A stretch of 24,103 nt of DNA from IMG/VR virus record IMGVR_UViG_3300035495_000018, positions 1 to 24,103 of that record; one strand, 5' to 3'. The notes under the pieces were generated by a model. The model saw only the letters and a program-made list of their open reading frames with translations. It searched no databases and had not been told where the DNA came from. The stretch comes from a virus (taxonomy: Duplodnaviria; Heunggongvirae; Uroviricota; Caudoviricetes; Crassvirales). Of the stretch, positions 1 through 24,103 are shown piece after piece. Numbering within the stretch: position 1 is the stretch's first letter; every line of letters begins with the position of its first letter. The position numbers and the translations under genes were made by a program.

Positions 1-1
1 T

Positions 2-2584
2 AACTATAAGACCAATAAGGTTGTTTCTCAAGGTGCTGTACTTGATATGAAAGGACAGACTGGAGAAGCAGGAAGTGATGGAAATGATGGTTCTAATGGT
101 ATTGATGGTTCTAATGGTATTGATGGTTCTAATGGTATTGATGGTGAGAATGGAAATTTCACAGAGTATAGATACAAGAGGTCATCAGAGTATGCTATCA
201 CTCTAGGTTCTCAACAGAAGGTTGATAGAACCCCCGAGGGATGGTACACTGATTGGAGTGAAGCTGATGTTGAAAGTTTTAGTGCTCTGCTTAATAATAT
301 AGGTGCAGCATTTGACACATTCTTAAATCAATTCTCTACAAGCCAGCTTATCTCTTCTAGCAACAAGAAGTACTTCACTGAATTAGGTAGCTCGCCTACA
401 TTTGCACAAATACAATCTCAGTATTATGCATTACATGGAGTTTACCTCACAGTTAATGATACACAGGAAGCTCTTGTTCTAGCAGCCTTCAAAGACTACC
501 TAGGACTTTATAATACCTGCACTGCTGCTACAGAAGACCTATTGATATGTAATACAGAATATCATAGATTGTACACCAAGTATAATGATGAAGACCACTT
601 CTGGGTGCTCTTTATGATTTATGCTACCATAGATGGGGATACCAATAATCTTATTGGTGAGTGGTCAACTCCACAAAGAATACAAGGAGAGGATGGTAAG
701 CCAGGTGCAGCAGGTTCCAATGGTATTGATGGTATTCCTGGAGTTAATATAGGAGTAGCATTTACATTAGGTACAGAGGATGCTATAAGGCCTGATGCAG
801 TGGACCCTACTGTATCTCCTTATAATACTAACTACAAAGCTCTATTTGCAAGTGGTACTAAGTGGCAAAAGGACTCTCCTACTGTTACTACTACCTATCC
901 TTATATATGGTTCACTCAATGTAGATACAGAGTCAATACTGATACAGATGGTAATGAGACTTACACATTTGAGGATGTATGGTCTGACCCTGCAAGATAT
1001 ACAGGGCTCAATGGTGTCACTACTACAGAGACTGTCTATGTGAAGAACCCTATAATCTATCCTCAAGGTATATATACTGCTGGTACAACTTATACTAATG
1101 ATGGTAATAGAACCCCATATGTATACTATGATGGATACTACTATTATTTGTCAGGTCAAGGAAGCTGGACAGGTACTTCTACATCAACACCTGCTAATAA
1201 CTCTGCATGGTGGACACTTCTAGAAGGGTTTGAGGCTCTATATACCAAGGTTGGTATTATAGCTAATGGTCTTATTGGTAGTGCGGTATTCAATGGACCT
1301 TATATGTTTAGTCAGCAAGGTGTTGACCAGAATGGCACTGCAACATCTCACTATGAGAACTTCTTGAAGAACTACAGCACTGGTGCTACCTTAGTAGACC
1401 CTTATGATGATATGGCTTCATTTAAGCCTAACTTCTGTATTAATTTTGAGACAGGAGAGCAGTGGTCTACTTCAATAGATAGTGCTATTGGAACTGCTAA
1501 GTCAGAAGTTATTCAGACAGCTCAGAGTATTTCACTATCAGTACAAGATACTATTGAAGGTAAACTGGAGTCAGCTGGAATTAGTATTACTTCAAGTGGT
1601 GTTGAAATCACAGGTAAGTTCAGTGGTACTTCTGATGGCACTTTCAATGGGGATGTAGCTGCAAAGAGTCTTTCAGTTCTAGGAGAGGATGGAACACCTG
1701 CTATGGTGTTTGATACTTATAAGGAGTCAATGGGTACCCCTAGTGGTGGTACTGCTCCTGATGAAGGTACTCCAGTACTGCTTATAAACTATGGAGGCAA
1801 TCAATACTTGGTAAGTATGTTGAAGCTTGTTACAGGCTCCTCAACAGGACAGTATCAGAAGACTCAACCTACAACTGTAAACTTGTACACTACCTCCTCA
1901 ATTACTAATAAGATGGGAACCCAAGGCTCGGCTAACTATAGTAAGATTACTAAGGCACCTTACTTGACCTTAGTTGACAACAATGGTAATACAACCAGTA
2001 CTACAGTGACTGCTAAGCTTTATGACTCAAATGATAATGAGCTATCTTGGAGCACCTATCTTAACAAGTATTACTCTGGTACCCTAGTAACTGAGTATCC
2101 TGATAAGACTGACCTAGGAAGTGGAATATGGGCATTTAAGCTTACTGGTAGCTTAGCTACAGTTTCAGACATTTATAATGGTACACCTACTAGTAAGATT
2201 ATGGCTGTAACTGGAGTTTGTTCTAATATTAGTGCTGGTTATTCAGCAACACTGTGCTATACTTCTTGTACTGCTAATGTGTATAGCAAAATAAAGATAG
2301 CATCTGGAGTTTTAACTACAGTCACAGATGAAAAGATAGTAGTGGGTTATGGAACTAAACAGAGCAATAATAGTTTGACTCAAGATACTTCTACTGTTAA
2401 GTACCTAAAGTGCTCATCTGCAACTGCTAATTACTTAACACCTAGTGGTGATTCTTTAACTAGTGCTTATTTCGCCTCTACTTCTACAACAAAGTCTGAG
2501 TGGACAAATACACAGGTTACTCAGTGCGCAGCTATTGTAGGACCTAAGCCTATGACAAGTGTAGAACCAACAGTAACAGCATAA
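2..2584 (+). CDS. Tail fibre/spike-like protein with collagen-like (Gly-X-Y) segments; 5'-partial
   Basis: The frame is open from position 2 (AAC TAT AAG ... GAT ATG), so the ATG at 47 is internal and the gene starts upstream of the window. It has two Gly-X-Y runs and Trp/Pro-rich modules ending in W-S-x-P-x-R-x-x-G-x-x-G. A block YVYYDG...EGFEALYTKVGIIANGLIGSAVFNGPYMFSQQG resembles Bacteroidota/crAss phage tail proteins as I recall them. A QTAQSISLSV segment and a Ser/Thr-rich C-terminus follow. The gene lies directly upstream of the muzzle gene and ends in TAA at 2582-2584. Confidence 0.75.
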   Translation, partial: NYKTNKVVSQGAVLDMKGQTGEAGSDGNDGSNGIDGSNGIDGSNGIDGENGNFTEYRYKRSSEYAITLGSQQKVDRTPEGWYTDWSEADVESFSALLNNIGAAFDTFLNQFSTSQLISSSNKKYFTELGSSPTFAQIQSQYYALHGVYLTVNDTQEALVLAAFKDYLGLYNTCTAATEDLLICNTEYHRLYTKYNDEDHFWVLFMIYATIDGDTNNLIGEWSTPQRIQGEDGKPGAAGSNGIDGIPGVNIGVAFTLGTEDAIRPDAVDPTVSPYNTNYKALFASGTKWQKDSPTVTTTYPYIWFTQCRYRVNTDTDGNETYTFEDVWSDPARYTGLNGVTTTETVYVKNPIIYPQGIYTAGTTYTNDGNRTPYVYYDGYYYYLSGQGSWTGTSTSTPANNSAWWTLLEGFEALYTKVGIIANGLIGSAVFNGPYMFSQQGVDQNGTATSHYENFLKNYSTGATLVDPYDDMASFKPNFCINFETGEQWSTSIDSAIGTAKSEVIQTAQSISLSVQDTIEGKLESAGISITSSGVEITGKFSGTSDGTFNGDVAAKSLSVLGEDGTPAMVFDTYKESMGTPSGGTAPDEGTPVLLINYGGNQYLVSMLKLVTGSSTGQYQKTQPTTVNLYTTSSITNKMGTQGSANYSKITKAPYLTLVDNNGNTTSTTVTAKLYDSNDNELSWSTYLNKYYSGTLVTEYPDKTDLGSGIWAFKLTGSLATVSDIYNGTPTSKIMAVTGVCSNISAGYSATLCYTSCTANVYSKIKIASGVLTTVTDEKIVVGYGTKQSNNSLTQDTSTVKYLKCSSATANYLTPSGDSLTSAYFASTSTTKSEWTNTQVTQCAAIVGPKPMTSVEPTVTA
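53..160 (+). repeat. Collagen-like Gly-X-Y run, 12 triplets (GQT GEA GSD GND GSN GID GSN GID GSN GID GEN GNF)
   Basis: Read directly from the translation: Gly at every third residue. Confidence 0.9.
86..145 (+). repeat. Perfect 18-bp tandem repeat (GATGGTTCTAATGGTATT) x3 plus a 6-bp partial copy, encoding DGSNGI
   Basis: Identical copies at 86-103, 104-121 and 122-139, then GATGGT at 140-145. Confidence 0.95.
686..748 (+). repeat. Second collagen-like Gly-X-Y run, 7 triplets (GED GKP GAA GSN GID GIP GVN)
   Basis: Read directly from the translation. Confidence 0.85.
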
Positions 2585-2594
2585 AAGAAAGAAT

Positions 2595-5500
2595 ATGCAA
2601 CAGTCTTCTAATCATACATTTATAGGACTGCAACAAGATACAGCAGTATCTAAGCAGTCACCTGAGTATCTAATAGATGCTCATAACATTAGAATTACAG
2701 CAAGAGGGAATGAAACCCTCTTGACTGTAACTAATGAGAGAGGTCCAAAGGAACTTACACTAAAGAAGGAAGATGAGACAAATGCTTATATAACAGGTAC
2801 TATTATAGGACATTGTGTTCTCAATAGCTACCTTGTTCTATTTACTCATGATGATTCTTATGGTGATAGTATCCTTAGGGTTGATATGTCAAAAGAAGAA
2901 CCTGTAGTTGTCAATATGTTTCAAGCAAGTTCTGACTCAACTCAATCATTGGGATTTGATGTCAATTATCCTATTGAGGCTATTGGTGACTATGAGAATG
3001 AGAACATTCAAAAGGTGTATTGGACTGATGGTCTCAATCAACCTAGAGTGATAAACATAGTACATTCTACTTATACATGGGCAGGTGCATTTGATTTTGT
3101 CCCAGAGCTTAAGTTAGGTGAGACTGTAACAGTAGATAGAGTAGCTAGTTCAGGGGGTTCCTTTCCTTCAGGAGTTATTCAATATGCCTTCACATACTAT
3201 AATAAGTATGGGCAGGAAACTAATATCTTCCATACTACCCCTCTATTCTACACATCATTTAATGATAGAGGAGGCTCACCTGAGAATGCAGTATCCAATG
3301 CCTTCAATATTACCGTAAAGGGTATTGACACTCACTTTGATTACTTAAGAATCTACAGCATCATAAGGACTTCTATCAATGCTGTTCCTACTTGTAAGAG
3401 AGTGCAGGATATTGACCTAAGTGTTATAAGTGAGAACACAATTAAATTCACTGACACTGGTACAGTGGGTGATACTGTAGACCCATCTTCTCTATTGTAT
3501 ATAGGAGGTGAAGAGGTTATAGCTGGTAGTATCTGTGCTAAGGATGGTACTCTATTCTTAGGCAATCTTAAGATTAAGAGACAAGCTATAAGCTCAATCA
3601 AGGACTTTATTACCAATGTAAAGGACTCAAGTATAAACACCTCTTCTAAAGTATCAACTGTAGCAAAGAGTATAAACCTCACTAGTGTAACATCTAGTGG
3701 TTATGCTTATAGCAATGGGCTCAATGCTAAGTGCAATGGTTCTAACACTAATGCAGCTGGATTCAAAAATAGAGAGTATTATAGACTGGGTCTGCAAGCT
3801 CAGTATAAGGATGGTAAATGGTCAGAGCCAGTATGGATAGGTGACTATCAAGTGCAAGGTGGCTCTACTTACCCTTATCAAAGTGGCTCTACATTACAGA
3901 AGCTTACAATACAATATACTCTTGATAGTGCAAGAAGAGCTGAATTAAAGAATGCAGGGTACAAGAAGATTAGACCTGTAGTGGTATTTCCTGATATACA
4001 AGATAGGACTGTTCTATGCCAAGGTGTAGTTAATCCTACAATGTACACTACTGATAATAGGAATTCATCTATCTATGCACAGTCTTCTTGGTTTTTTAGG
4101 CCACATATCTATGGAGTGTCAAGCTTGGATAGTTATGCTTCAAGTAGCAATGCCTATTCTGATTCTACTTGTAGCCCCTTCTCAGTGCATGGATTAACAT
4201 TACCATACACTGACTCTGCCTTAACTTGGGACCCTAAGATGGCAAGAGGTGTTGAGTTCCAAGGTCAATATGACTCTGACAATAAGTTCAAAGTTGATTG
4301 GAGTTTCTTAACTATGCACTCTCCTGACCTTGAGTTTGATGATTCTCTTCATAATGTTGACTTATCCAGTGTTAAGTGTAGACAGGTAGGTATATCTCAG
4401 TTTACCTATACTGCAAGTGATATTGATATTCAAACATCAACTCCTACTGTTAGTAATGGTGGTTCTGGATTTACTCACCAATCATTTACTAGATACAATT
4501 CTATGGGTATCATTAGTGGTTTATTCTACGATGATTTCATAGTAGATGAGTATGATAGTGGTAAGAAGTTTCAAGCTTATAGTAAGGAGTATAGCCCTTA
4601 TAGATGGTTAGTATATGCATGGAATAGAAATGGCTCACTTAATAATGATGTTAATAGACCAGCAGATGCTGGAACTAGAAGTGCTGAACTTAGCAAGAAG
4701 ACAATATCAAACCTAAGGTATTGTTCTTCTCCTGTATGGAATGCCTCTCCTACTAAGCTATCCTTGTCAAGTGATTGTGTTCCTCAAGTATTCAGTAGTG
4801 ATGAAGTGTCAATAGTAAAGCTTGGTAGCAATATCTATGAAGGTAATATTGATACCCTTCTTACCCCTGATAAAGTTGATGGTGACTACTTTGCTTTTAA
4901 TAGTAACTCTGTTGGAGCTCAGAATATTACTACTCCATTTAATTGTACTAAATGGTGGAAGACTTGGTCAAAGCAGGATGATTCTTCTGATGCTCAAGGT
5001 ATCTACAGAAGATATACAAATAACAATAGTACCCAATTCTACAGAGTAGATAAGAACATTGCAGATAACACAGTAGCCCTGGCTGTAAAGAAGGAGGCTG
5101 TTAGGTTTAAGTACAAATCAACTCCTCACATTGTAATAAGGCTATCAAGTGCTATCAGCAATACTTCAGATTCAAGCCATGTGGCTACTCTTCCTATAGT
5201 TGAACTATATAGAGAGTATGATTCAAATACAATGTTTGGAGGTACATCAAAAGATGCTCTTAGAGCTAACATGTGGCTACCTGCTGGTGAGGCAATATCA
5301 GTAGATGCAACTAATGTTCCTCTTGAATTTGAATGGGGTGATACTTGGTTTAGTAGATATGATTGCTTGAAGACTTACCCATTTACAGCAGAGGATACTA
5401 ATAAGGTTGTAGAGATTGGTTCTTTCATGCTTGAAACCAGGATAAACATTGATGGAAGATATGATAGAAACAGAGGTCAAGTTAATAATCTTAACATGTC

Positions 5501-6671
5501 TCCTACTAACTTCAATCTAATGAATCCTGTATACTCTCAAAGAAACAATTTCTTTAGTTATAGGATACTTGATGAGGACTACTATAAGCTGAGTGAGTTC
5601 CCTAATCAAATTACTTGGAGTACTGAGAAATCTCAAGGCTCTGATGTAGACCCATGGACTACTGTGACATTAGCTTCTACTTATGATATGGATGGTTCTA
5701 AAGGTAAGATTAGGTCTCTGAATGTATGGAGTGACAATATATACTGTTTCCAAGACAGTGGTGTATGTAACATCCTATTCAACTCTAGGGTCCAGATTCC
5801 TACATCTGATGGGGTTCCTATTGAAATCTCCAATAACTACAAGGTTGATGGTAAGAGATATATTTCTGACGGAGTTGGTTGTATCAATAAGTTTGCTATA
5901 TGTGCTACCCCTACTTCACTATATTTCATTGACTCTGTTGGGGGTCACCTACAAGCTATAAATGGTTCAGGTCTTAGTGATGTATCTCTACAAAGAAGTA
6001 TGGTCACCTGGCTAAGTAACCAGGCTACTGCAATGTGGACTCCTAATAAATATACTACAAGGTTGTTCTATGATAAGAATAACAATGACCTGTATATAAT
6101 GACAGATAGTGAGTCTCTCTGCTATAGTGAACAGCTTGGTCAATTTACTTCATTTATGACCTATTCTGAAATGCCTGCAATGTTCAATATAGTTGATAAG
6201 TTCTACTGTATCAAAGAGAACTACATCAATGAAATGTTTGCTGGAGATTACAACTACTTCTTTGGGGAGTATCAAGGCTATGATTTATCATTTGTATCTA
6301 ATGGCAAGACCTCTAATCAAGACCTATCTACAATAGATAAAATCTATGCTAATGTATTCTTCAGAGCTGATAGATGGTCTGATAAGATGGACAGCATTCT
6401 ATCATCTGAATCTCCATTTGACTATATCAGAGTATGGGATGAGTATCAAGATACTGGTGAAGTTCTTCTAAGGAATAAAGGCAACTTCCCTTCAATACTT
6501 AAGAAGAAGTTTAGAGTGTGGAGAGCACAGATTCCTAGAGATGCTCACAACAGAAGAGATAGAATAAGGAATACTTGGTGTAAGATTACTCTAGGCTCAG
6601 CACCTAGATACAATAATGGTAATAATGGTTTCATACAGCTACATGATGTAGAGGTTCAGTTCTTCATCTAG
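2595..6671 (+). CDS. Crassvirales tail muzzle / 'stabilisation' protein (P22 gp10-related family; PhiCrAss001 muzzle-like), 1358 aa
   Basis: Its length and motifs match crAss-like stabilisation proteins as recalled: N-terminal F-x-G-L-Q-Q-D...Y-L-I-D-A-H-N-I-R-I, ENENIQKVYWTDGLNQPRVINI, GDTWFSRYDCLKTYPF, FMLETRINIDGRYDRNRG, and C-terminal KKFRVWRAQIPRD...RDRIRNTWCKITL. It is beta-rich and sits directly before the cargo genes. Start context GAATATG, stop TAG. Confidence 0.85.
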   Translation: MQQSSNHTFIGLQQDTAVSKQSPEYLIDAHNIRITARGNETLLTVTNERGPKELTLKKEDETNAYITGTIIGHCVLNSYLVLFTHDDSYGDSILRVDMSKEEPVVVNMFQASSDSTQSLGFDVNYPIEAIGDYENENIQKVYWTDGLNQPRVINIVHSTYTWAGAFDFVPELKLGETVTVDRVASSGGSFPSGVIQYAFTYYNKYGQETNIFHTTPLFYTSFNDRGGSPENAVSNAFNITVKGIDTHFDYLRIYSIIRTSINAVPTCKRVQDIDLSVISENTIKFTDTGTVGDTVDPSSLLYIGGEEVIAGSICAKDGTLFLGNLKIKRQAISSIKDFITNVKDSSINTSSKVSTVAKSINLTSVTSSGYAYSNGLNAKCNGSNTNAAGFKNREYYRLGLQAQYKDGKWSEPVWIGDYQVQGGSTYPYQSGSTLQKLTIQYTLDSARRAELKNAGYKKIRPVVVFPDIQDRTVLCQGVVNPTMYTTDNRNSSIYAQSSWFFRPHIYGVSSLDSYASSSNAYSDSTCSPFSVHGLTLPYTDSALTWDPKMARGVEFQGQYDSDNKFKVDWSFLTMHSPDLEFDDSLHNVDLSSVKCRQVGISQFTYTASDIDIQTSTPTVSNGGSGFTHQSFTRYNSMGIISGLFYDDFIVDEYDSGKKFQAYSKEYSPYRWLVYAWNRNGSLNNDVNRPADAGTRSAELSKKTISNLRYCSSPVWNASPTKLSLSSDCVPQVFSSDEVSIVKLGSNIYEGNIDTLLTPDKVDGDYFAFNSNSVGAQNITTPFNCTKWWKTWSKQDDSSDAQGIYRRYTNNNSTQFYRVDKNIADNTVALAVKKEAVRFKYKSTPHIVIRLSSAISNTSDSSHVATLPIVELYREYDSNTMFGGTSKDALRANMWLPAGEAISVDATNVPLEFEWGDTWFSRYDCLKTYPFTAEDTNKVVEIGSFMLETRINIDGRYDRNRGQVNNLNMSPTNFNLMNPVYSQRNNFFSYRILDEDYYKLSEFPNQITWSTEKSQGSDVDPWTTVTLASTYDMDGSKGKIRSLNVWSDNIYCFQDSGVCNILFNSRVQIPTSDGVPIEISNNYKVDGKRYISDGVGCINKFAICATPTSLYFIDSVGGHLQAINGSGLSDVSLQRSMVTWLSNQATAMWTPNKYTTRLFYDKNNNDLYIMTDSESLCYSEQLGQFTSFMTYSEMPAMFNIVDKFYCIKENYINEMFAGDYNYFFGEYQGYDLSFVSNGKTSNQDLSTIDKIYANVFFRADRWSDKMDSILSSESPFDYIRVWDEYQDTGEVLLRNKGNFPSILKKKFRVWRAQIPRDAHNRRDRIRNTWCKITLGSAPRYNNGNNGFIQLHDVEVQFFI

Positions 6672-6687
6672 TTAAGCTATAATTTAT

Positions 6688-6725: not shown

Positions 6726-6737
6726 CACATTAATATG

Positions 6738-6770: not shown

Positions 6771-6787
6771 CAATAAATCTTTAATAT

Positions 6788-9550: not shown

Positions 9551-9553
9551 GAT

Positions 9554-10981
9554 ATGTATTTACAATTAGATACTAGATTTAATCCATTTACATACGATGA
9601 GATGGTAAAACCTCTGCTCTATTATAAGCAAGCTTATGATGAAGCAGAGGCAGCCTACTCAGCTTTATCATCTGATACTGATGCATGGAAAAACAGGGTG
9701 GATAAAAATAATAGTCCACTTGCTTATGAGCAATTTCAGAGGTACTCTGGAGATTTATCTAGAACAGTAGATGACTTTAGTAGAGGTATGAATGCTAAAA
9801 ATAGGAGAGCCCTCTTAGGTCTCAAGAGAAGATATGCAAGTGAGATAAAACCAATAGAGGATGCTTATAACAGAAGAACCGTATTAGCTGAGGAACAAAG
9901 AAAGGCTAATCTGGCAAATCCTACTATGTTGTGGCAAAGAAAGGCTAGTGATATGAGCCTTGATGACTTTATAAAGAATCCTGATGCTGACTATGGTAGG
10001 AGCACCTCTGGTACTGCTCTAACTGCTCAAGTTGCAGCTGGTGCTGGTGCTCTTGCTAAAGAATTTAGAGACAACCCCGAAAAGATGAGAAAGCTTGTTG
10101 GAGGTGACTACTATGAGTATGTAAAACAAAGAGGATTTAGTAGTGAAGCTGTTCTAGCTGCTATAATGAATAATCCAAATGCTTCTCCAATATTAAATCA
10201 GCTTGTTGAGGGTGCTATAGACTCTGCTGGATTGAAAGAATGGGCTGATGCATCTACATTAAGTCAAGCATACAACTATGCAAGACAAGGATTATGGAAT
10301 GCAGTTGGACAAGAAGAGGCACAGTTAGTTCAAAACTGGAGAGCACAAGAGAACTTAAGTCACTCTCATGCTATGGCAAGACAAGCATCTGCGCAAGCCT
10401 TCCAAGCTGCTGAAGCAGAGAAGAATAGGCAATTCCAAAGAGAGCAGTCATCTCCTAGGGCAATTATTGGAAATGACGGTAAACCTACAGGAGAATACTA
10501 TGACCCTAAGCTAGGAGTTGTTGTTGACAACAAGGGTAACATAATAGGAACTCCAAAGAGTAAGAATACCCAAGGCCCTGATGGAAATAAAAGAGACCCA
10601 AATGACCCAAGGCCTAAAGAGCTGATGCAGCCTTTATACTTTGATGCATTCTATAATGATACTTCATCTGGTCTAACATATAAAGCAAAATGGGATGGAA
10701 ATATAGATGAGGCAGGTAGACAGTTAATCTACTCTAAAGGAAAACATGTATCAGGTTCAGGAGTTCCTAATAAACTAAGTACAAAAGCTCTGGCTGATAT
10801 TAGAGCTAAGCTTCCAAAGGGCATGTCTCTAAGTGATGTTGATGTATATGTTGACCATGACAGTTGGTCTGACAGTCACTATATAGTAGTTGACTCCAGG
10901 GGTGACATCCTTGGGAGAGAAAAAGTAGCAACGTCTACTCCTACTTCTGGAAGTAAGGGTAGTCAAAGTGCAGGATTATAA
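9554..10981 (+). CDS. Putative virion cargo/ejection protein, 475 aa
   Basis: Long ORF with typical codon usage in the same operon. The N-terminus DTRFNPFTYDEMVKPL followed by a helical region resembles the crAss protein that follows cargo protein 1. No catalytic motif recognised. Confidence 0.6.
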   Translation: MYLQLDTRFNPFTYDEMVKPLLYYKQAYDEAEAAYSALSSDTDAWKNRVDKNNSPLAYEQFQRYSGDLSRTVDDFSRGMNAKNRRALLGLKRRYASEIKPIEDAYNRRTVLAEEQRKANLANPTMLWQRKASDMSLDDFIKNPDADYGRSTSGTALTAQVAAGAGALAKEFRDNPEKMRKLVGGDYYEYVKQRGFSSEAVLAAIMNNPNASPILNQLVEGAIDSAGLKEWADASTLSQAYNYARQGLWNAVGQEEAQLVQNWRAQENLSHSHAMARQASAQAFQAAEAEKNRQFQREQSSPRAIIGNDGKPTGEYYDPKLGVVVDNKGNIIGTPKSKNTQGPDGNKRDPNDPRPKELMQPLYFDAFYNDTSSGLTYKAKWDGNIDEAGRQLIYSKGKHVSGSGVPNKLSTKALADIRAKLPKGMSLSDVDVYVDHDSWSDSHYIVVDSRGDILGREKVATSTPTSGSKGSQSAGL

Positions 10982-11000
10982 TAATAAAAGTTAATTAGAT

Positions 11001-17000: not shown

Positions 17001-18224
17001 ACTATTATAGACAGTGACACAGGTGTTGTAATACAAGGTCAGGCCAGACCACAAACAAACCCTGCTGCTGAAAGGGCTAAGGAGGTAGTAGACAGAATAG
17101 TTGAGGATTCCAAGGGAATAACTCTTTCAGATGATGGTTCAGGTTATGTAGATAGTAATGGAACAAGATATGCTAGAGTTACTTCTATAATAGCAGCTGA
17201 CATTGAAGCAGGAGAAAGGTTTGACCCCAACAGTCCTTGGGTAACTCCTTCTACTAATATAGGTACAGGTGTTGATGAGTTTGTAAGAGACTTCTTTGCT
17301 GGTAAAGCTACAGACTTTAGTAAGTATCCTAATGCTACTCCTGAATCATTACAGAAATTTGCTGAACAGCTAGCAATCTTAAAGAACCAGCTTGAGCTAA
17401 ATGGTCTCACAGTAGTTCCTAGAGATGTTACTGTTACAGGTCAGATTGAAGTTGCTGATTCAAATGGTAAGATACACTCTATAAATGTTGCTGGAACACT
17501 TGACCTACTTGCTTATGATGGAAAGGGAAACTTCTATATCTTTGATATGAAGACTAATAGAAGTGGAATTGACCAACACAAGAGAGACAAGTACGCAAGA
17601 CAGTTGTCATTATACAAGGAACTACTTGAGAAGAAGTATGGTGTACAGGTTAAGTCTCTAAATATCCTTCCCATCGGAGTTACTTATCCAGCCCCAGCTG
17701 GAGCAAGAAATGGTGTGGCTGACTACTCAGTATCACCTGAGTCACCAAACCAGTTGCTCATAGATGGAAAAGAGTACAGAGAAGCAAACCCACAGCTTCA
17801 ACAAACTATAGCTGTTCCCTATAAGCCTCTACATATAGTATATGATAGACTCACAGATGCAGAAAGAGGAATGATTTCTGGAATTGAAGATGCTATAAAT
17901 GAAGGTAATGGGGTTGAGCAAGCAGCAGAGCCAATTACTCCTGTTGAAGCTCAAGTTGCAGACCCAGTTGAGGCACCAGTAGATACCACTCTTGGAGTTG
18001 CAGTTGACATGAGTGTAGGTGACTCTCTATTTGAAGATGACTTTGACTTTGGTGCAAGTTGGGATATGAGTGGAAGATTAACACCAATACCACATCATCT
18101 GCAATGGAGCAACCTTACACAAGAACAAAGAGATGGTCTTGAAGCTAAGGGCATAAATGAAGAATCCTGGTCACAAAAAGAGGACCAGGAAATGGAACAT
18201 GAGTTAGGTTGTATAAAAACTTAA
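11001..18224 (+). CDS. Giant virion cargo/ejection protein with N-terminal membrane-type segments and a C-terminal PD-(D/E)XK nuclease domain, 2407 aa
   Basis: Gly/Ala-rich hydrophobic segments occur at about 11787-11846, 12039-12155, 12225-12278 and 12954-13064. An E-G-x-E-E-x-x-Q motif (EALGEGFEEYTQ, 12801-12836) is typical of phage ejection proteins. Long coiled coils, an acidic Pro/Glu linker (about 14910-15150) and nuclease motifs at 17166-17690 follow. Confidence 0.75.
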   Translation: MILGGGPFGLGLGLPTKPAQTEQQVYNQAYFTGLAGLGADDRANWEKKYAKEIAGLDDEERDNYFRNTIFMDIFGNSDDEEDKKIFANRSSLTRDQRDSLIAQKAISSDIDAMSDLQESPLDLWKSLVDADYKYAWIDSKLGDETARQGAMRHLEEKGLENYDIFYNNLMSLDTETRDKMLSDLDNFSGEVSPYYKMYNGTDKLNLSPEEKVSMLATYLSNESVGGTAFAAKALGNSYQDIVASNQSVLEKAWNSGAQFIDSAAGMIIRAAGMVGGAVGIGLEDDESWLENVIDNTVTRYGDRIATTNSWSPSEQESLELLGMSDNPIINTVDQQNALMSANTPFELFGQYGFTTASTILSFGGSSVLQGATKGAAWLGKVAMGGKTLNATAKGTKFLRGVIKARNIGNVLIPGAVGTVEGGMNAAMTKQETLRGLEQDINDRFTQTLDGAITGGSGLEGGVQSEEDIDKAIIGSGTENCQAVLDAMFGAGKIDASKHTSAEVAELVKQRYRSDKAAAEESANTAMYYDFWTNSVINGMVNSTWKAGLEAPRVQNALRKIGLGGGESPVSEAVNVARQGDRWVAQARQATRGQLFKSRLKEALGEGFEEYTQDISSAFGQAYANDKMQQYIDNKYGANPGATAAQNDFWQSFAAGIQAAGNAAVSPDAIKSGLYGALSTAMGGPNIAMKQGANGNMRASGITWRSAITPLISNKERDAINEQREKMAEHFNNYFSDETMQRALFNAGGTAEWLTQMQQSIESNDEKGARDARVGQMFSNIITLNDLEGTGYHDAVVANLQARAGFNEANLADPESEESKSVEQLMASAAHRTQNLTREEALQTIKKNATEMLNMMDMVSKETRSIEKIFGENIDQDVKASMVFNRVVIDDYKKRIGQLDDEISQVTTELGSQENLTPTSSPTSKGRRLIARFGSLSNAISELQRMEQQKSEIDQVVREMEGEESDGHLSQEDQATFAMAKEYQRVLARDIKAIKEAREEYSTEARHMPVERDGITYDDPVDSTVLSAEEIMRLSASDRAFMLDPKHKDRYSQEQQAEIDKVNSVGTSIHQDFNKKVADRSRIERDYKAAMTSQFNLMYSPKALNRYVNKVKLQAQQRMLQKKNEDLIDLAVKEDDYWRFSERLDEIYNNGDQAEISAVEGMLSGRDFSGVRWLGIPQEATDMFERYQSENQRKAEVYDWAERNGVFEENDPRADVFAATLDYLTNSGVDIADIESGAQSLLETTLDEDGNPGEYYFEQHLARANERSPIEEQVNGYSSIEETIQTYRDVMSRYNAERQQRELDNEEVVASQTDEAASEPAVIPEPQTSGPSLFDIGGSTPEAGHLNSDGERVGTTTVSDMVEQAEEPVETPQEEPQATPVSVVDKFTENSNEEVGKAAEIALRNAENAPSFSPEAKSEVKSILEELADYSFDSVDDFLESVTKRANALDSRAEDDNRQVPDLLRHVVAKVQQAKNSKESITTPSSSVSPFFDRRRRTIQTQARRMNYNMFGAGPNAGYITSINIAHIRQNHPDSIHADYYDKYGIEDALRDGVLSGNPDVMFITDSNLTDAVRNDMESKGIGYTENDLPIVAVVETSNGPITINVNGQDKHFQPVSIMSATGVEYSAGSNNMAPIRRLASSNGGGVSIVKNADGSPVVTKPMGQIKAVPNYDSSRRGQDNNNVLDVGQSDLSENERDTPQGYQKAKRKFLKSLGVVKVSDTLKKIVFHLNKLNGATHPIDIFIAPVQRTTNKNGQSVTQVRDDADGLISFNSRTRRAAKAIGSFIESFTDEEMSFNRDSNGQVIPLGDTAKLLESYASGIESRVSNFINIASKSGWHYAVNATDQSVDGKRVYSIDLVNDDGSSIQLTAVHQGMTEEQSKAAQHQFLRNLLMDETGEVRMSNDRDSLAKWQVPFSDVERASQGDENAKKNLSDIYDDGYLEVSATNTSFQYTIQGIALQSPFKRDGSPVYQTVANTDNATPSSPLNSPAVVANGQVEQGETIIDSDTGVVIQGQARPQTNPAAERAKEVVDRIVEDSKGITLSDDGSGYVDSNGTRYARVTSIIAADIEAGERFDPNSPWVTPSTNIGTGVDEFVRDFFAGKATDFSKYPNATPESLQKFAEQLAILKNQLELNGLTVVPRDVTVTGQIEVADSNGKIHSINVAGTLDLLAYDGKGNFYIFDMKTNRSGIDQHKRDKYARQLSLYKELLEKKYGVQVKSLNILPIGVTYPAPAGARNGVADYSVSPESPNQLLIDGKEYREANPQLQQTIAVPYKPLHIVYDRLTDAERGMISGIEDAINEGNGVEQAAEPITPVEAQVADPVEAPVDTTLGVAVDMSVGDSLFEDDFDFGASWDMSGRLTPIPHHLQWSNLTQEQRDGLEAKGINEESWSQKEDQEMEHELGCIKT
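17166..17690 (+). other. PD-(D/E)XK (RecB/AddB-like) nuclease domain within the 2407-aa protein
   Basis: The motifs are in canonical order: RVTSII, GTGVD, VAGTLD(2168)LL, YIFD(2182)MK(2184)T, Q(2201)LSLY(2205), then the LNILPI beta-strand. The catalytic D...D-x-K and the RecB-family Q-x-x-x-Y motif are intact. Confidence 0.85.
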
Positions 18225-18232
18225 TAGAAAAA

Positions 18233-18267
18233 AATAAAGGGTAGTGATTAACTCACTACCCTTTATT
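18233..18267. terminator. Bidirectional intrinsic terminator between convergent giant genes
   Basis: Perfect 15-bp inverted repeat AATAAAGGGTAGTGA / TCACTACCCTTTATT with loop TTAAC. The A-run at 18228-18234 gives the U-tract for the - strand, and CTTTATTGTT serves the + strand. It fills the 44-bp gap between the stops at 18224 and 18269. Confidence 0.9.
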
Positions 18268-18268
18268 G

Positions 18269-21200
18269 TTATCTAGCCTTAACATTTCTACCATATTCAA
18301 ATGACTTGGCAGCTTCATAAGGATGTTCAAATGTATACACACTTCTTAAGTATGGGCACATCCTCCTCATGTGCACAAGACCTTCAGAGTCTCCTTCTTC
18401 ATACAGCCCTTCTTTGCTGGACTGATAGAAGAATGTTGAATTGGCCTCATCAGCAAATGGCATTCCACCTATTTGATATGCAGTATTGCCTATATCCATC
18501 AGAGCACTGAAGCCAGATGGTATCATATCCAATACTGTGTTTGCCTCATAATACCATCCACCAGGATAGTTGAAGGCTGCTTGCTCTCTATATAGTCTGT
18601 TGGCAAAGTAGTAGATTAGACCTTTTGCAATGTTATCCTCATCATCGTCATCATCATCACCTACTGCTGTAAGTCCCTTGAGTAGTGCAAGTAACCCAAT
18701 CAGTAAGAAGTCACCAAAGTTTCTCTTAAGATTCCTTACTTGATTAGCTGAGAAGCCAGCTTGATAAAGTGCATTAGCAGTATTCTTTCCAAATGGCATA
18801 AGCAATGCTCTAGCAGTAAGCTTAAATCCACCTCTATCAGTAAATGTACTCAAGATAACCTTTGCTACAGTATTCAATGAGCCTTCAGTGTTTTGACCTA
18901 GAGCTACATTGTACTTGTTAGCACCAAATCTTCTTTCCATCATACCAAGAGCATAACCCCTCATGGCAAGTACAGCATTACCATACCAACTCTGAGAGAA
19001 GGCCACCTTGTCTTGGTTATTATAAATACCATGCAGCCTTATGTTAATCTCTCTAGCCTTGTCCATGAACTCAGTTTCATCTGTAGCATTCCATGTAAGG
19101 TTCTCAGCGTCTTGCCTTAACTGAGTGAGTGTATTTTCTGTATCTGCAAGGTTATAGTTCTTGTTGGACAAATAATCTTGCTCATCTTGGCTAAGGTTGA
19201 TAGCAGCTCCAAATGGATTAGACATTGCTGACTCAATCTTTGATATGATTGAATTAGCCATATCATATTCAGCCTTTCCATCTTTTGACTTGAAGAAGGT
19301 TCCTTCGAGTGACAGAGTTTTGCCACCCTTTCTTCCATAACTATCTACATTATCAACAACCTTATAAGCATTGAACAGAGATATTTTATCTCCATTCTCA
19401 TCATACAGCATTGTCTTGCCAGCAAGGGCTAGGTATGCTATTGATGACATATAGTGGTCACCAGACTTATATGGAAGGAACAGACTCTCACTGAACATAT
19501 TATATATTCTATTCCAAGCATTCCTCTCATGCCAGTCTCTGTGTTTCTGTCTACTGTCACTAAGTATGTTGAAATGTCTCATCATAAGAGACACCTTATC
19601 TTCCTTCACATCATTTCCATATTGAATCCAGTTACTACCAAATGAACTGAAGTACAGTTTGTTAGCCCTCAAGAAATCTTTTGCTGTGAAGAACTCTCCA
19701 GCAATAGCTTCCTTGAATAGCTCATTGAAGCCAGTCATAGTATTAACAGCACCACCCGCAACATTACCTCCTAGGAAGTATTTAGAAGCAAATGATGACA
19801 GAGCTGCCAGTACCTTTTCAAGTACAACTCTTTTTCCTATCTTATGCTTGGTATTTCCAATACCATAGACTTGCTTGTCAAGGAACTTAAGATACCTATT
19901 ATAGGCCTTAGATTTATCTCCAGCTATCTGCTCTTCAGTCTTCTGACCTCCAACCTTTCTCTTCTGTAGAACATTCTTTCCTACTTCAAGAGTATCAACT
20001 ATTTGACTCATGGCAAGGTGGCTGTTAGCCATACTTGCATAAGCAAGTGTTGAATGGAACAGGTCAGTTGACAGCTCAGTCATATCTTGTAGTTTGTTTA
20101 TACCAAACAATGGAAGTCTATGTATCTTCTCTTTTTCATGAGCTAATGCATTAGCAAACAGTTCCTCCTCTTCAGAGTTATATGTCTGGTTACTTCCAAA
20201 ATCAGTATCCTCACTACTTTCACAGAAAGTATCCATGATGCTTCCTCTAAGTGCATGACCAACAGCTTTTGTTATACCAACAGTTTGATTCTTAACTCTG
20301 TTGGTGAACTTGCCTTTGAATTGAGGCATTCTTACTGCTAGAGTACTGCCTTCAGGTAGTCTTGCATCTAGCCCAGTCTTGAGTTGCATATAGTCATTGT
20401 ACCAGTTATGAAGGTCATTATTTGATACAACTACTCTGTCAAACTCTGGATTAGCATAGGTACCATTTGGTATGTACCTCTGCATATTCTGGTCATAGAT
20501 ACTATGTGTAGTATGCCATGCCCTGGATAATGGTCTGAAATACATGTCCCATTGGACTGCTTTCTCAAACTCTGTCATCTGGTCCAAGTTAGGAACAGTC
20601 TGCTTGAAGTTCTCAAGTTCAGCTTTCTTGAACTCTTCCCAATCACTTTCATAATCTCCCCAATTGACTTCAGAGAGTATATTACCTGTCAGTTGACCAT
20701 CTCTTCTACTTCTTTCAAATAGAATGCTGGTGTCCTTTATACCCATATCCTTGAGTCTCTTCTCAAGTATTCTGAGCTCATCCTGACATTGATTGGTAAG
20801 GTCATCTGCTGCTTTGTTTGCAGCCTTTGTAGCCCTATCAACTATCTGACCTATAAGGTCTGAGTTATTTGACATAGATGCTAGATACCTCTCAAAGAAA
20901 GTAATATCTCCCTCCATCTGTTCTAGTACTTCGGACACATGGAGTTTGCCCTCCTTCTGGAATGACAGACCCCATCTGCCATCCTTATTAAACAGTACTC
21001 TTGCAGATGTTTCAACATATTTACTCCCAAGTGTATCTTCACAGAACCTACAGAAGAATTGTCTCTCCTTTTGGAACAGCTCAGCCATAAGAGTCTTATT
21101 AGCCTGAGCAAGGTTGTTAAGGACCTGATTAAGATTTACAGTTACAACATTGCCTAAACTATCTGTAAGTTGGACATGGTCAATGTTACCTTTCAGTTCC

Positions 21201-22642
21201 CTTTGACCACCTACCTCTACACATGCTTCTTCTATGACACCTTGTAGTGTGAAACTAAGATTAACAAATGTATGTATCTGTCTTAACTTCCTGCCATTCT
21301 CTGCCATGTTACTCATGAAGTCACCTATGTTCTGGAAGTCAATAGACTTAAGTAGAGTGTCTATTTCCTTTCCATCACCCATCATATCAGATATAAGTGA
21401 CAGAGCCTCGGTTATACCATCAAGAGCAACACTGTCAGATAAGAATGAATTACCATTGGCATTTATAAGGTTAGTTCTTCCTGACTCAGTAACACCAAGT
21501 ATACCCATCATCTTCTTAGTGAAGATGTTATTGTCTATACCTTTCAATTCTGATACAGCCAGACTCAACCTATTAACAGTTTCTCTATATAACTTGGTGT
21601 TGGTAGTTCCCTGAGCACTGTATAGGGTCTCTCTTGTCTTTAGAGCCTCTTCTATAGAACCACTGAAATCACCAGACATAAAGTCACTTGCAAGTTTATC
21701 TGCAATTGCTTTTGCTTCAAGTGTAGCTCTATAAGCTGCATTATCACCTTTCTTGAATACAGAGAATACTCTTTTTGCTAGGTCAACTATCCTATGGACC
21801 ATCTTCTGCCAGGGCTTCTCATTATCAACACCACCAATGAGTGCCTTTCCAACAAGTGCTCCAGCTACCTCTCTTCTTGCATCAGCTCCTAGTACCTTGT
21901 TATTGTATTCATCACCTAATGCCTCTTTCTGAACCTCTGGGGTAAGAAGTTTCATGAGTCTTTCAACTAGCGGAGAGTCACTTAATGCACCTATAACAAA
22001 GTGACCAGCCTCCTCTGCCAGATTCTCTGTAACTCTTTCCCCATTTACAACTCTGATAAGCTGGTACATTCCATCAGCTGTTTGCTGTGCATTTACAGTA
22101 CTGTATCTTCCCCCTGTTTTGTCATCTTTTTCCATGAACTCAACAGATACTCCAGCCTTATTAAGGTGATACATTATCCTGTCATGTAGAGACCTCTTTC
22201 TTACTTCTTCATACAATGCAATCTCAGCTGCATTAGTACGAGGAACTACAGACAATTCATACTTACCATTGTTGTATTTCACTGTAGCCATGAAGTCACT
22301 TTTGAACCTACTATTGTTGTTGAAGCTCTGTAGTCTTGTCATAGCCTGTGAATACTCGTATGTACCAGCTCCTATATCCTTGTTGAGAGTAGATAGTATT
22401 TGTTCCTGGCTCACATCAATGTTAGCCAACTTTCTAAGAGAGTTGAATGTAATTTCTCCATTCTCATCGAATTCAGCTCTATCCCTTACTCTATCAAGGA
22501 ACTCCTGGTTTGTGCCTACACTGTAATACTCTTTTGTTAGTTCCCTATTGGGAAGATGGTAGAGTAAATCTTTGAAAAGATTACTCTCTACCACCTCACC
22601 ATTAGAGTTCCTAACATGAGCTATTTTCACACATTTACTCAT
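18269..22642 (-). CDS. Large virion-associated (cargo/ejection-type) protein of the RNAP gene cluster, with a degenerate zincin-like motif, 1457 aa
   Basis: Uninterrupted ORF with start context TAATATG. It has ENLAEEAGHFVIGAL near the N-terminus (E210-H214) and is predicted largely helical. A Gly-rich KYFLGGNVAGGAVNTMTG segment, INIRLHGIYN...WYGNAVLAMRGYALGMMERRFG and a hydrophobic FLLIGLLALLKGLTAV followed by poly-Asp give it a C-terminal region like other phage ejection/large polyvalent proteins. Confidence 0.65.
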   Translation of the reverse strand: MSKCVKIAHVRNSNGEVVESNLFKDLLYHLPNRELTKEYYSVGTNQEFLDRVRDRAEFDENGEITFNSLRKLANIDVSQEQILSTLNKDIGAGTYEYSQAMTRLQSFNNNSRFKSDFMATVKYNNGKYELSVVPRTNAAEIALYEEVRKRSLHDRIMYHLNKAGVSVEFMEKDDKTGGRYSTVNAQQTADGMYQLIRVVNGERVTENLAEEAGHFVIGALSDSPLVERLMKLLTPEVQKEALGDEYNNKVLGADARREVAGALVGKALIGGVDNEKPWQKMVHRIVDLAKRVFSVFKKGDNAAYRATLEAKAIADKLASDFMSGDFSGSIEEALKTRETLYSAQGTTNTKLYRETVNRLSLAVSELKGIDNNIFTKKMMGILGVTESGRTNLINANGNSFLSDSVALDGITEALSLISDMMGDGKEIDTLLKSIDFQNIGDFMSNMAENGRKLRQIHTFVNLSFTLQGVIEEACVEVGGQRELKGNIDHVQLTDSLGNVVTVNLNQVLNNLAQANKTLMAELFQKERQFFCRFCEDTLGSKYVETSARVLFNKDGRWGLSFQKEGKLHVSEVLEQMEGDITFFERYLASMSNNSDLIGQIVDRATKAANKAADDLTNQCQDELRILEKRLKDMGIKDTSILFERSRRDGQLTGNILSEVNWGDYESDWEEFKKAELENFKQTVPNLDQMTEFEKAVQWDMYFRPLSRAWHTTHSIYDQNMQRYIPNGTYANPEFDRVVVSNNDLHNWYNDYMQLKTGLDARLPEGSTLAVRMPQFKGKFTNRVKNQTVGITKAVGHALRGSIMDTFCESSEDTDFGSNQTYNSEEEELFANALAHEKEKIHRLPLFGINKLQDMTELSTDLFHSTLAYASMANSHLAMSQIVDTLEVGKNVLQKRKVGGQKTEEQIAGDKSKAYNRYLKFLDKQVYGIGNTKHKIGKRVVLEKVLAALSSFASKYFLGGNVAGGAVNTMTGFNELFKEAIAGEFFTAKDFLRANKLYFSSFGSNWIQYGNDVKEDKVSLMMRHFNILSDSRQKHRDWHERNAWNRIYNMFSESLFLPYKSGDHYMSSIAYLALAGKTMLYDENGDKISLFNAYKVVDNVDSYGRKGGKTLSLEGTFFKSKDGKAEYDMANSIISKIESAMSNPFGAAINLSQDEQDYLSNKNYNLADTENTLTQLRQDAENLTWNATDETEFMDKAREINIRLHGIYNNQDKVAFSQSWYGNAVLAMRGYALGMMERRFGANKYNVALGQNTEGSLNTVAKVILSTFTDRGGFKLTARALLMPFGKNTANALYQAGFSANQVRNLKRNFGDFLLIGLLALLKGLTAVGDDDDDDEDNIAKGLIYYFANRLYREQAAFNYPGGWYYEANTVLDMIPSGFSALMDIGNTAYQIGGMPFADEANSTFFYQSSKEGLYEEGDSEGLVHMRRMCPYLRSVYTFEHPYEAAKSFEYGRNVKAR

Positions 22643-22657
22643 ATTATAGAATTAAAT

Positions 22658-24103
22658 TTAACAACCTTGTAGTAAGTTACCCTCCTCATCCATGAGCAGG
22701 ATACCGTCCTTTCTGCATGCCTTTCTGATGTCTTCTATGTTGGATTTGAGCTCATCATCTGATGCAGCCCTCAACCCTTCAATCAGACTTTGAGCTGAGA
22801 TAGCTTCGCCCATCTCATCTTTGTACCCAATATTTGCAAGAGCCTTAGCCATTTCAGTCGCAATTTCATTTATTGCAGCCTCTCTGTCAAATGTTACAGG
22901 AGCAGGTCCTGGCTCTTGTGAAGAGTTTCCTTCATCAAAAGCTCCAGTACCTTCCTCCATAGTATCAACAACAGGAACAGCTCTAGTGCTTCCAGTGTAT
23001 TGCATAGAGTTACCTTTAAGTCCTTGTTTATCCATTCTAACATAGGTCATTGTAGTACCTTCTGTTTCATTGAAGACAAGTCCTTCACTCTGTGCTACAA
23101 ACAGTGCACCACCAACAGAGATTACTGGCCTGAATCTAGAGATTTTAGTTTCCTTATCAGGCTTACCAAGTAGGAATAGTCCTGCATCCTCTCCAAGTCT
23201 TGCAGTGTCAATAGTGAATGAAGGAAGTACTTCTTTCATGCTATTGAAAGCAAGTGGTTTCAGTATATCTTTAGCTGTTTTACTCTTATCAGCATTGAAT
23301 ACAAGTCTTTCATTGTCTGAGTGATTGAGCATATATTGGATAGCAAAATCAGTGCTGTTGTACTGAATTTTGTCACCCTTTACATCATTGAGAAACTCAA
23401 CATAGCTTCTTGCACTGCCATCCCTATTGGGAACCATTAGAGATTGCTTTACTTCAGTAGGAGCAAGGTTCATAAAGACACTAGGTCCAAATGAGAAACC
23501 AAGCTTAAAGAAGTTGTACAGGAAGAGGTCTCTAGCAACCAGAGGATTTGTTCTGTTTAGGTCAGCCCAACTCTCTCTGATTTCATCCTTTTGGAAGGGA
23601 GCTAAACCACCTATTCCTTGGACATTCATTACAATCCTATCTTCTTTCGTCCCATTAGGAAGAGTAACTTCTCTGCTGTCAAACATCATGTACTTGAATA
23701 TAGCCAGTTCTTTAAGAGATGGATTGGCTTCAAGTTCTCTAAACATGTCACTTGCAAAGTGCTTGGTGTAATACTCTCTGACAGTAGGAGCAGTTCCATC
23801 AGGGTTGGTGTGACCAGTCCCAAGTTTGGGAAGCTCACCATTGAAGTCACTGTGCTCTTCATTTGACAGAAGGTATACCATCATATCACTATGTATGCTA
23901 TTGATGGTATCTGCATCAAGTATTCCAGCTTTAGTTAATCCAGCAAGAGTCTCTCTAGCTACACTGTAACATGAGTTGTCATAAGGGAAATATCTTGTTA
24001 GATGCCTCAAGGCTCTCCTATTTGCATCAAACATAGCCTGCTCATAAGCAAATGGATTGTCTATCAGACTGTCAAAATAGTCCTCATCACTCATCTCAAG
24101 TAA
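22658..24103 (-). CDS. C-terminal ~480 aa of a giant virion protein, probably the crAss-like virion RNA polymerase polyprotein; 5'-partial
   Basis: The frame is open to the window edge (TTA CTT GAG ATG at 24103-24092), so the true start lies outside. The segment VARDLFLYNFFKLGFSFGPSVFMNLAPTEVK resembles the C-terminal region of crAss-like RNAP proteins as recalled, and the gene position fits. The catalytic DxDxD motif is not in the window, so the RNAP call is an inference. Confidence 0.55.
   Translation of the reverse strand, partial: LLEMSDEDYFDSLIDNPFAYEQAMFDANRRALRHLTRYFPYDNSCYSVARETLAGLTKAGILDADTINSIHSDMMVYLLSNEEHSDFNGELPKLGTGHTNPDGTAPTVREYYTKHFASDMFRELEANPSLKELAIFKYMMFDSREVTLPNGTKEDRIVMNVQGIGGLAPFQKDEIRESWADLNRTNPLVARDLFLYNFFKLGFSFGPSVFMNLAPTEVKQSLMVPNRDGSARSYVEFLNDVKGDKIQYNSTDFAIQYMLNHSDNERLVFNADKSKTAKDILKPLAFNSMKEVLPSFTIDTARLGEDAGLFLLGKPDKETKISRFRPVISVGGALFVAQSEGLVFNETEGTTMTYVRMDKQGLKGNSMQYTGSTRAVPVVDTMEEGTGAFDEGNSSQEPGPAPVTFDREAAINEIATEMAKALANIGYKDEMGEAISAQSLIEGLRAASDDELKSNIEDIRKACRKDGILLMDEEGNLLQGC

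Follow-up and report, generated by a model that had tools for sequence, protein, structure and literature searches.

The locus

The first 24,103 bases of the virus record IMGVR_UViG_3300035495_000018 (the window) belong to a gut crAss-like phage that has lost nearly all of its CG dinucleotides, about 93%. The whole record is 104,352 bp long and is rated complete by CheckV, and the window is the muzzle/cargo/virion-RNA-polymerase block of this complete 104-kb Steigviridae-type genome. The CG loss is a context-free and fully synonymous purge that is maintained by selection, acts on nucleic acid and is specific to certain phage lineages.

The window begins with a tail-fibre-like gene, followed by the genes for the muzzle, cargo 1 and cargo 2 proteins and then by three giant genes that are annotated in relatives as virion RNA-polymerase subunits. 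Muzzle and cargo genes in this conserved order, followed by giant RNA-polymerase-like genes, mark the phage as a Steigviridae-like member of the Crassvirales. A tree of the large terminase (TerL) places it inside the Steigviridae part, and its closest named relatives are Steigviridae/Asinivirinae. In the following list and throughout, rho is the ratio of observed to expected dinucleotides, with the expectation taken from base composition.

1-24103: whole window; CG 53 against 935 expected, about 18-fold depleted, on both strands
47-2584, plus strand: tail-fibre-like protein with an N-terminal collagen repeat (Pfam Collagen, PHROG tail fibre); CG 6 against 97 expected
2595-6671, plus strand: Crassvirus muzzle protein (Pfam crAss_MUZ, E = 0); CG 3 against 138 expected, rho 0.022
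6788-9550, plus strand: Crassvirus cargo protein 1 (Pfam crAss_CARG1, 1.5e-56); CG 7 against 108 expected
9554-10981, plus strand: Crassvirus cargo protein 2 (Pfam crAss_CARGO2, 5e-82); CG 6 against 55 expected
11001-18224, plus strand: 2407-aa virion protein, annotated as an RNA-polymerase subunit in relatives; CG 17 against 293 expected
18269-22642, minus strand: 1457-aa RNA-polymerase-subunit-like protein (the Kolpuevirus orthologue, 45% identical, is so annotated); CG 10 against 165 expected
22658-24103, minus strand: C-terminal 481 codons of a 2309-aa putative RNA polymerase (by its orthologues), whose open reading frame (ORF) extends to genome position 29587; CG 4 against 60 expected

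The 2407-aa virion protein has a C-terminal PD-(D/E)XK domain of the RecB/Cas4-like kind at residues 2114-2232 (Pfam PDDEXK_1, 5e-5), together with a PHROG exonuclease match and a weak PDB match to Exonuclease V.

Anatomy of the CG depletion

The window is composed of 7561 A, 7030 T, 5038 G and 4474 C. Its 53 CG correspond to a rho of 0.057, while GC occurs 967 times against the same expectation of 935 (rho 1.03). In the 104-kb genome, 288 CG occur where 3,603 would be expected (rho 0.08), GC has a rho of 1.0, and the CG rho of every 4-kb bin lies at 0.03-0.21. All 53 CGs of the window fall in its seven genes, each with a rho of 0.02-0.11, on both strands, and 35 of the 97 ORFs of the genome are entirely free of CG. 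Arginine is encoded in the window by 261 AGA, 96 AGG and two CGT codons and by no other CGN codon, and NCG codons total 14.

These counts bear out the description given in the initial annotation: about 50 CGs where several hundred to about 900 would be expected, a ratio below 0.1, C and G at about 18-21% each, arginine nearly always as AGA or AGG with CGT about twice, NCG codons and C|G codon junctions rare on both strands and in every gene, and a normal level of GC, so that low G+C does not explain the deficit.

The depletion also survives codon-controlled nulls. The first null keeps the amino acids and the position-specific base composition, and it predicts 819 ± 23.5 CG in the window (53 observed) and 2908 ± 48 in the coding sequences of the genome (217 observed). 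The second permutes synonymous codons, so that codon usage is exact and only codon junctions are tested. It predicts 371 ± 12.8 CG for the window, against the same 53, and 1299 ± 25 junction CGs for the genome, against 128 observed (z = -47). With z-scores of about -25 to -56, composition and coding together do not account for the scarcity of this short palindromic word. Shuffling fails to reproduce the count, so that this refutation named in the initial annotation does not apply. The whole genome is thus synonymously recoded, with AGR in place of CGN for arginine, NCH in place of NCG, and NNT|G in place of NNC|G.

That all this is an artefact or a by-product, whether of low G+C, of codon usage, of host mimicry or of miscalled bases at methylated positions, has a probability close to nil. 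G+C is only 37-39%, and nanopore reads underlie some crAss-like assemblies. However, the GC rho is 1.0, the codon-controlled nulls fail by more than 25 standard deviations, the host proxies described below have a rho of 1.19, arginine is encoded by AGR rather than by miscalled CGN, and the same purge is found in genomes from several laboratories, including the Illumina-sequenced crAss001.

Depletion extends to each of the ten strand-symmetric NCGN contexts, with ratios between 0.016 for CCGG, the lowest, and 0.12 for TCGA; relative to its Markov expectation, CCGG is down by a further factor of 5. Whether a context is palindromic makes little difference (0.071 for palindromic and 0.083 for non-palindromic contexts). 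The unit of depletion is the dinucleotide itself, independent of context. Non-coding DNA has 71 CG against 344 expected, a ratio of 0.21 compared with 0.07 in coding DNA. The remaining non-coding CGs lie mostly in a tRNA and structured-RNA region at 57-70 kb, and tRNA genes have a CG rho of 0.25, a 4-fold depletion. Since spacers and tRNA genes are depleted as well, the pressure acts on nucleic acid and not on translation or codon choice.

The densest CG cluster of the genome, seven CGs within about 30 bases (60732-60762), lies in a 202-aa ORF without a family match (60598-61206), which has 11 CGs in all (rho 0.42). Orthologues of this ORF are found in Kolpuevirus, DAC17, cr128_1 and the IMG/VR relative G001 (IMGVR_UViG_3300035498_000265).

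Selection at the level of RNA, in which a host or phage ribonuclease or RNA sensor would act on CG in transcripts in the manner of the vertebrate sensor ZAP, is quite improbable. Ribonucleases typically recognise two bases, almost the entire genome is transcribed, and CG is self-complementary, so that selection on DNA and on RNA would look alike; the weaker depletion of non-coding DNA also speaks for RNA. However, most non-coding CGs lie in tRNA or structured-RNA regions, where pairing constraints explain their survival, and the tRNA genes, which encode stable structured RNAs, are themselves depleted. No candidate RNase was found, and the co-occurring erasure of GATC and CTGCAG, described below, is a DNA-level signature.

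Selection or mutation

The closest relative of the studied genome (L108) shares only about 80% DNA identity with it, and synonymous sites are saturated. The sister genus Kehishuvirus was therefore used to separate selection from mutation. crAss001, PhiCrAssBcn4, tikkala and cr112_1 were aligned over 26.4 kb of reliable columns at up to 17% divergence, and substitutions were polarised on terminal branches.

T-to-C changes before G, which create CG, occur at 0.38 per 1000 site-branches, compared with 4.8-7.5 in other contexts, and four CG gains are seen where context-blind rates predict 48. The effect is most direct at strictly synonymous NNY third positions, where NNT|G changed to NNC|G at two of 3396 site-branches and the same change before A, C or T occurred at 77 of 4788, a 27-fold deficit before G (Fisher p = 7e-16). 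There are no CG losses in about 30 site-branches, where about five would be expected if CG were 20-fold hypermutable, and five of the ten CG sites are conserved in all four genomes at 17% divergence. Because CG-creating changes are rare and CG losses absent on short branches, it is selection, not hypermutability, that removes new CGs. Purifying selection against new CGs maintains the purge in Kehishuvirus. CG at synonymous sites is thus under purifying selection there, and the equilibrium counterpart in the studied genome is the junction deficit at z = -47.

The initial annotation offered two causes: long-term deamination of methylated CpG, or selection against a defence that recognises CG. 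The second is borne out by the 27-fold deficit in Kehishuvirus as far as selection is concerned; a host defence behind it is our best guess. The first, in which a host or phage enzyme would methylate CG and the 5-methylcytosine would decay as in vertebrates or Mycoplasma penetrans, is exceedingly unlikely. Searches with the C5-methyltransferase family PF00145 gave no match in the studied genome or in ten other Crassvirales records, purged or unpurged. Pfam and PHROG scans found no methyltransferase in the replication module, and there is none among the 37 Pfam-scanned proteins of the genome, N4 and N6 methyltransferase families not having been searched genome-wide.

The studied genome has a mild excess of TG/CA (1.14), and CG sites within its lineage are conserved more poorly than other dinucleotides, both as decay would have it. 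However, TG/CA ranges from 0.90 to 1.16 across the purged genomes and loci, with equally purged relatives at 0.90-1.05, and NCA codons reach only 0.72-0.96 of their share in control four-fold codon families. The TG/CA excess at synonymous positions that the annotation had proposed to look for is therefore not there. In Kehishuvirus, the roughly 30 site-branches without a CG-to-TG loss and the five conserved sites tell against hypermutable CG, substitutions that create CG fall short by 12- to 27-fold, a deficit that hypermutability could not leave on such short branches, and host-type DNA has a rho of 1.19. To call the CpG loss "vertebrate-like" is misleading, since the mechanism differs.

Distribution among crAss-like phages and hosts

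Host-type DNA was represented by the Bacteroides thetaiotaomicron plasmid p5482 and the Bacteroides phage B40-8, which are proxies and not host chromosomes. A host-chromosome search of genome contigs with the phage NrdD matched only Pseudobdellovibrio metagenome-assembled genomes. The CG rho is 1.19 in both proxies, against 0.08 in the studied phage, so the phage does not mimic host dinucleotides. Arginine is encoded by CGN at 52-66% in host-type DNA and at 0.3-4% in purged phages. The values of rho in the genomes compared are as follows.

Gut Steigviridae: studied phage 0.080; G001 0.128; cr116_1 0.080; Kolpuevirus frurule 0.055; crAss001 0.028; DAC17 0.021; cr128_1 0.24
Marine Steigviridae: phi14:2, 0.46
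Intestiviridae, three genomes: 0.54-0.73
Suoliviridae, four genomes: 0.53-0.98
Flavobacterium phage FPSV-S29: 0.089

A measure free of codon usage is the number of CGs at codon junctions over the permutation expectation (junction O/E). It is 0.02-0.22 in the purged group of gut Steigviridae and FPSV-S29, with 0.10 for the studied phage, 0.07 for Kolpuevirus, 0.027 for crAss001 and 0.023 for DAC17, and an intermediate 0.35 for cr128_1. The unpurged Intestiviridae reach 0.92-1.14 (Rudgehvirus 1.14, crAss002 1.05, LMMB 0.92), cr272_1 and cr118_1 reach 1.09-1.31, and the proxies 1.16 (p5482) and 1.19 (B40-8). Intestiviridae and most Suoliviridae have no codon-junction CG depletion. The trait is thus not general in Crassvirales: gut Steigviridae are purged, and these other families mostly are not. 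Vertebrate immunity acting through TLR9 was rejected as the agent, as the unpurged crAss-like families live in the same gut.

Kolpuevirus frurule, Kehishuvirus tikkala and Rudgehvirus jaberico were all isolated on B. cellulosilyticus WH2 (PMC10028833). A purged Kolpuevirus (0.07) and an unpurged Rudgehvirus (1.14) on one strain mean that host identity alone does not decide the trait. Of the host dependence suggested earlier, there remains the fact that the depletion is not shared by all Crassvirales irrespective of host; that the host alone would explain it does not hold, with WH2 carrying both types. As an anecdotal observation, the CG-normal Rudgehvirus gave 3.75e3 PFU/mL on WH2, and the CG-purged Kehishuvirus and Kolpuevirus gave 2-9e9 (PMC10028833), a difference to which CG content may conceivably contribute.

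In 80 IMG/VR loci with a TerL 44-94% identical to that of the studied phage, rho(CG) ranges from 0.007 to 1.18. When these loci and the reference genomes are placed on one TerL tree, the trait forms clusters yet shifts readily, and sister lineages may differ about 10-fold. Examples are L150 (1.04) and L154 (0.15), or L129 (0.05) and L140 (0.47), and L131 and L141 (0.06-0.09) adjoin a clade at 0.94-1.18. With rho below 0.2 scored as purged and above 0.45 as normal, Fitch parsimony requires at least nine changes between the two states among 94 tips, compared with about 23 when labels are shuffled.

FPSV-S29 (MK764449.1) is a distant relative from outside the gut that infects F. psychrophilum, with a TerL 27% identical. 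It is independently CG-purged (rho 0.089, junction O/E 0.16), also lacks GATC and CTAG, and has no tRNA genes.

A trait that follows phage lineage rather than host could reflect a CG reader carried by the phage, that is, a nuclease or other DNA-reading protein of the lineage that acts on CG in host or competitor DNA and to which the phage is immune by lacking the target. This is rather unlikely. In its favour are the contrast on one strain (0.07 vs 1.14) and the patchy tree, whose nine or more shifts are what a mobile gene would produce. One of the giant virion proteins of the window bears a PD-(D/E)XK nuclease domain, and the phage has its own RNA polymerase and nucleotide-salvage genes. However, the domain belongs to the RecB/Cas4/ExoV-like family, which is not sequence-specific, and it is undetected in G001 and FPSV-S29, both purged. 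No gene is common to all purged genomes and absent from all unpurged ones, and the lineage-specific core proteins have no DNA-reading domain recognisable by Pfam or PHROG.

Two specific candidates were rejected. The injected PD-(D/E)XK domain occurs in Kolpuevirus, DAC17 and cr116_1, gives a weak signal in crAss001 and cr128_1, and is undetected in G001 and FPSV-S29, so it does not correlate cleanly with the purge. A GIY-YIG endonuclease, considered as a mobile gene in two backgrounds, rested on a 78% match in cr118_1 that proved to be a short motif without tblastn support.

The lineage pattern might also stem from the phage's own machinery, if packaging, ejection with the cargo proteins, the virion RNA polymerase or the family A polymerase performed poorly on CG steps. 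Such a constraint is very improbable. The family A polymerase and several virion proteins occur in all gut Steigviridae and are undetected in the unpurged families, but these genes co-vary with a single clade, so the association may be phylogenetic inertia. The link is broken by cr128_1 (0.24) and by relatives in the same TerL clade with a rho of 0.7-1.2, and FPSV-S29 is purged without the family A polymerase or those virion proteins. We know of no precedent for a machinery effect of 10- to 40-fold.

Arginine tRNAs and the genetic code

The genome has 21 tRNA genes, including three for tRNA-Arg (61694-61769, 62430-62506 and 66920-66992), all of which read AGR (anticodons CCU, UCU and UCU). Each of the seven gut Steigviridae examined carries a tRNA-Arg(UCU/CCU), and none of eight unpurged Crassvirales does. 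Kolpuevirus and cr128_1 keep it despite having very few tRNAs; FPSV-S29 is purged and yet lacks it. Carriage of an AGR-reading tRNA-Arg fits a compensation for long-standing recoding, which gives a concrete reason for tRNA carriage by purged phages.

A check of the codon table, with each dinucleotide counted together with its reverse complement, shows that CG, which is its own reverse complement, stands alone: any coding sequence can be freed of it on both strands without an amino-acid change. For each of the others, at least one amino acid or the codon junctions stand in the way. CG is the one word short enough for blanket protection at no protein cost. That the code allows CG alone to be erased in this way would make it the natural target of avoidance, and explains why CG, and no other word, gets erased.

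Proposed avoidance of host DNA-cutting defences

CG is accompanied by longer erased words. The genome has no GATC (291 expected), one CTGCAG (30 expected) and no GATATC (30 expected), and crAss001 additionally lacks CTAG, GGCC, ATGCAT and CAGCTG. Tisza et al. report 639 methylation motifs in 268 genomes of the Bacteroides fragilis group, with GATC and CTGCAG as the only two found in all five species studied (PMC10333322). A hand count over part of their motif table indicates that about 15-18% of the motifs obligately contain CG, many of them Type II-like palindromes with a CCGG core; CCGG is also the context that the studied phage depletes most. Erasure of two pan-B. fragilis-group motifs points to a Bacteroides host.

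The preferred reading, with a probability of roughly 0.45, is that the purge serves as blanket avoidance of host defences that cut DNA and recognise targets containing CG. A genome nearly without CG would leave no substrate for defences that recognise CG-containing sites. Candidates are the orthodox Type II systems with a CG core that the B. fragilis group commonly has, or possibly one dedicated CG reader. The reading is favoured because GATC and CTGCAG are erased too, and across 72 genomes and loci rho(CG) correlates with avoidance of GATC (Spearman 0.53) and of GGCC (0.38). No methyltransferase of the phage's own was found, and the loss of GATC, CTGCAG and GATATC demonstrates that the lineage relies on site avoidance. 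The absence of a protective methyltransferase, from the PF00145 search and the 37 Pfam-scanned proteins, is also what is typical of restriction-site avoidance.

Several points weigh against this reading. To our knowledge, no restriction enzyme or other defence has a bare 2-bp CG specificity, and no CG-specific enzyme or defence was identified in this analysis. The near equality of palindromic and non-palindromic NCGN depletion (0.071 vs 0.083) is unlike the effect of a handful of Type II sites. According to Rusinov et al. (PMC6286503), avoidance hardly extends beyond the sites of orthodox Type II systems, so there would be no precedent for numerous rare motifs acting diffusely. Rudgehvirus is CG-normal on the same WH2 strain, which makes a host factor alone insufficient; one must assume another counter-defence in Intestiviridae or selection in other hosts. 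The Spearman correlations carry no phylogenetic correction. The selection test was done in the sister genus and not in the studied lineage, where CG sites are less conserved (0-37%) than other dinucleotides (40-70%). This low conservation fits a mutation-selection balance in which most CGs are young and mildly deleterious.

A more novel possibility is that an undescribed activity in the conflicts between Bacteroidota and their phages, either a host defence or a phage weapon, discriminates DNA by bare CG. This is doubtful. Neither the gene-content contrast nor the Pfam and PHROG scans yielded a candidate CG-binding or CG-cutting protein. If such a reader existed, it could be a host defence seen by some phage lineages only, or a weapon whose owner is free of the target, and CG-free genomes would be a recurrent answer to it, explaining at least nine purge shifts within one phage family and the purge of unrelated mobile elements.

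Crassvirales rank first in abundance among human gut phages. Since purged members are in culture (crAss001, DAC15/17, Kolpuevirus and Kehishuvirus), the question can be tested directly at the bench, and the Kolpuevirus/Rudgehvirus pair on one strain is a natural control. As a marker, the junction CG ratio costs little and separates crAss-like lineages, and it may inform the design of DNA meant to enter Bacteroides.

Other features of the genome

The muzzle protein (2595-6671) has its best named relative in cr116_1 (Pamirivirus), at 68% identity. TerL (72324-74585) is 82% identical to that of IAS virus, 78% to that of cr85_1 and 55% to that of cr116_1. With its muzzle closest to cr116_1 and its TerL closest to IAS virus, the genome is a mosaic within Steigviridae. 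The tail-fibre-like protein (47-2584) carries its collagen triple-helix repeat at residues 2-37 and has orthologues only in G001, cr116_1 and DAC17. G001 has orthologues of the muzzle, cargo 1 and cargo 2 proteins at 54-73% identity, and BLAST detects none in it for the 2407-aa and 1457-aa RNA-polymerase-like proteins (window 11001-22642), which suggests, at the level of sequence comparison, a non-orthologous replacement of these virion proteins.

The replication module encodes a family A polymerase, NrdD, ThyX, a dUTPase, a protein of the uracil-DNA glycosylase (UDG) superfamily, a PD-(D/E)XK exonuclease, a primase and a SNF2 helicase. Elsewhere there are an RIIA-like protein (44127-45905; PHROG 612, 3e-16) and a small HATPase_c protein (46210-46593), which among the compared genomes are shared only with cr116_1. 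In the Suoliviridae member cr272_1, the TerL gene (8980-11034 of its locus) has four in-frame stops under translation table 11, which fits the reassignment of stop codons that certain crAss-like phages are known to have.

Comparison with known systems

A literature search found no published description of CG depletion in crAss-like phages, and a large survey of phage CpG content (10.1101/2025.05.15.652987) does not mention them. The nearest parallel is restriction-site avoidance in virulent phages (PMC6286503), in which a short palindromic word is lost from a non-temperate double-stranded DNA phage without a protective methyltransferase. The studied genome likewise erases GATC, CTGCAG and GATATC. 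However, the word at issue here has 2 bp and is depleted in every flank, whereas the published sites are orthodox Type II sites of 4-8 bp (PMC6286503). The purge implies a CG reader beyond the bacterial defences or phage weapons currently listed.

CpG suppression in RNA viruses that infect vertebrates is read by the sensor ZAP, and PMC11282364 describes ZAP and TLR9 as encoded by vertebrates only. As in those viruses, synonymous CG is removed by selection rather than mutation, and the depletion goes far beyond coding constraints. Unlike them, the phage has a double-stranded DNA genome and a bacterial host, and host-type DNA is not CG-depleted.

In prokaryotes, CpG under-representation has been tied, as cited in PMC11282364, to the CG-specific C5 methyltransferases M.MpeI of Mycoplasma penetrans and M.SssI. 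The phage resembles these systems in having a genome-wide CG deficit in a genome of prokaryotic type. It differs in that no such methyltransferase was found in it, in that there is no deamination footprint, and in that CG is not hypermutable in the sister genus.

The general rule, attributed to Forni et al. in PMC11282364, is that the CpG content of phages resembles that of their hosts. The unpurged phage B40-8, which matches the Bacteroides plasmid at 1.19, follows this rule. The studied phage and its gut Steigviridae relatives do not, as they deviate 10- to 50-fold from host-type DNA. The loss of a 2-bp word on this scale, maintained by selection against a CG-normal background of host-type DNA, contradicts the generalisation that phage CpG content follows the host.

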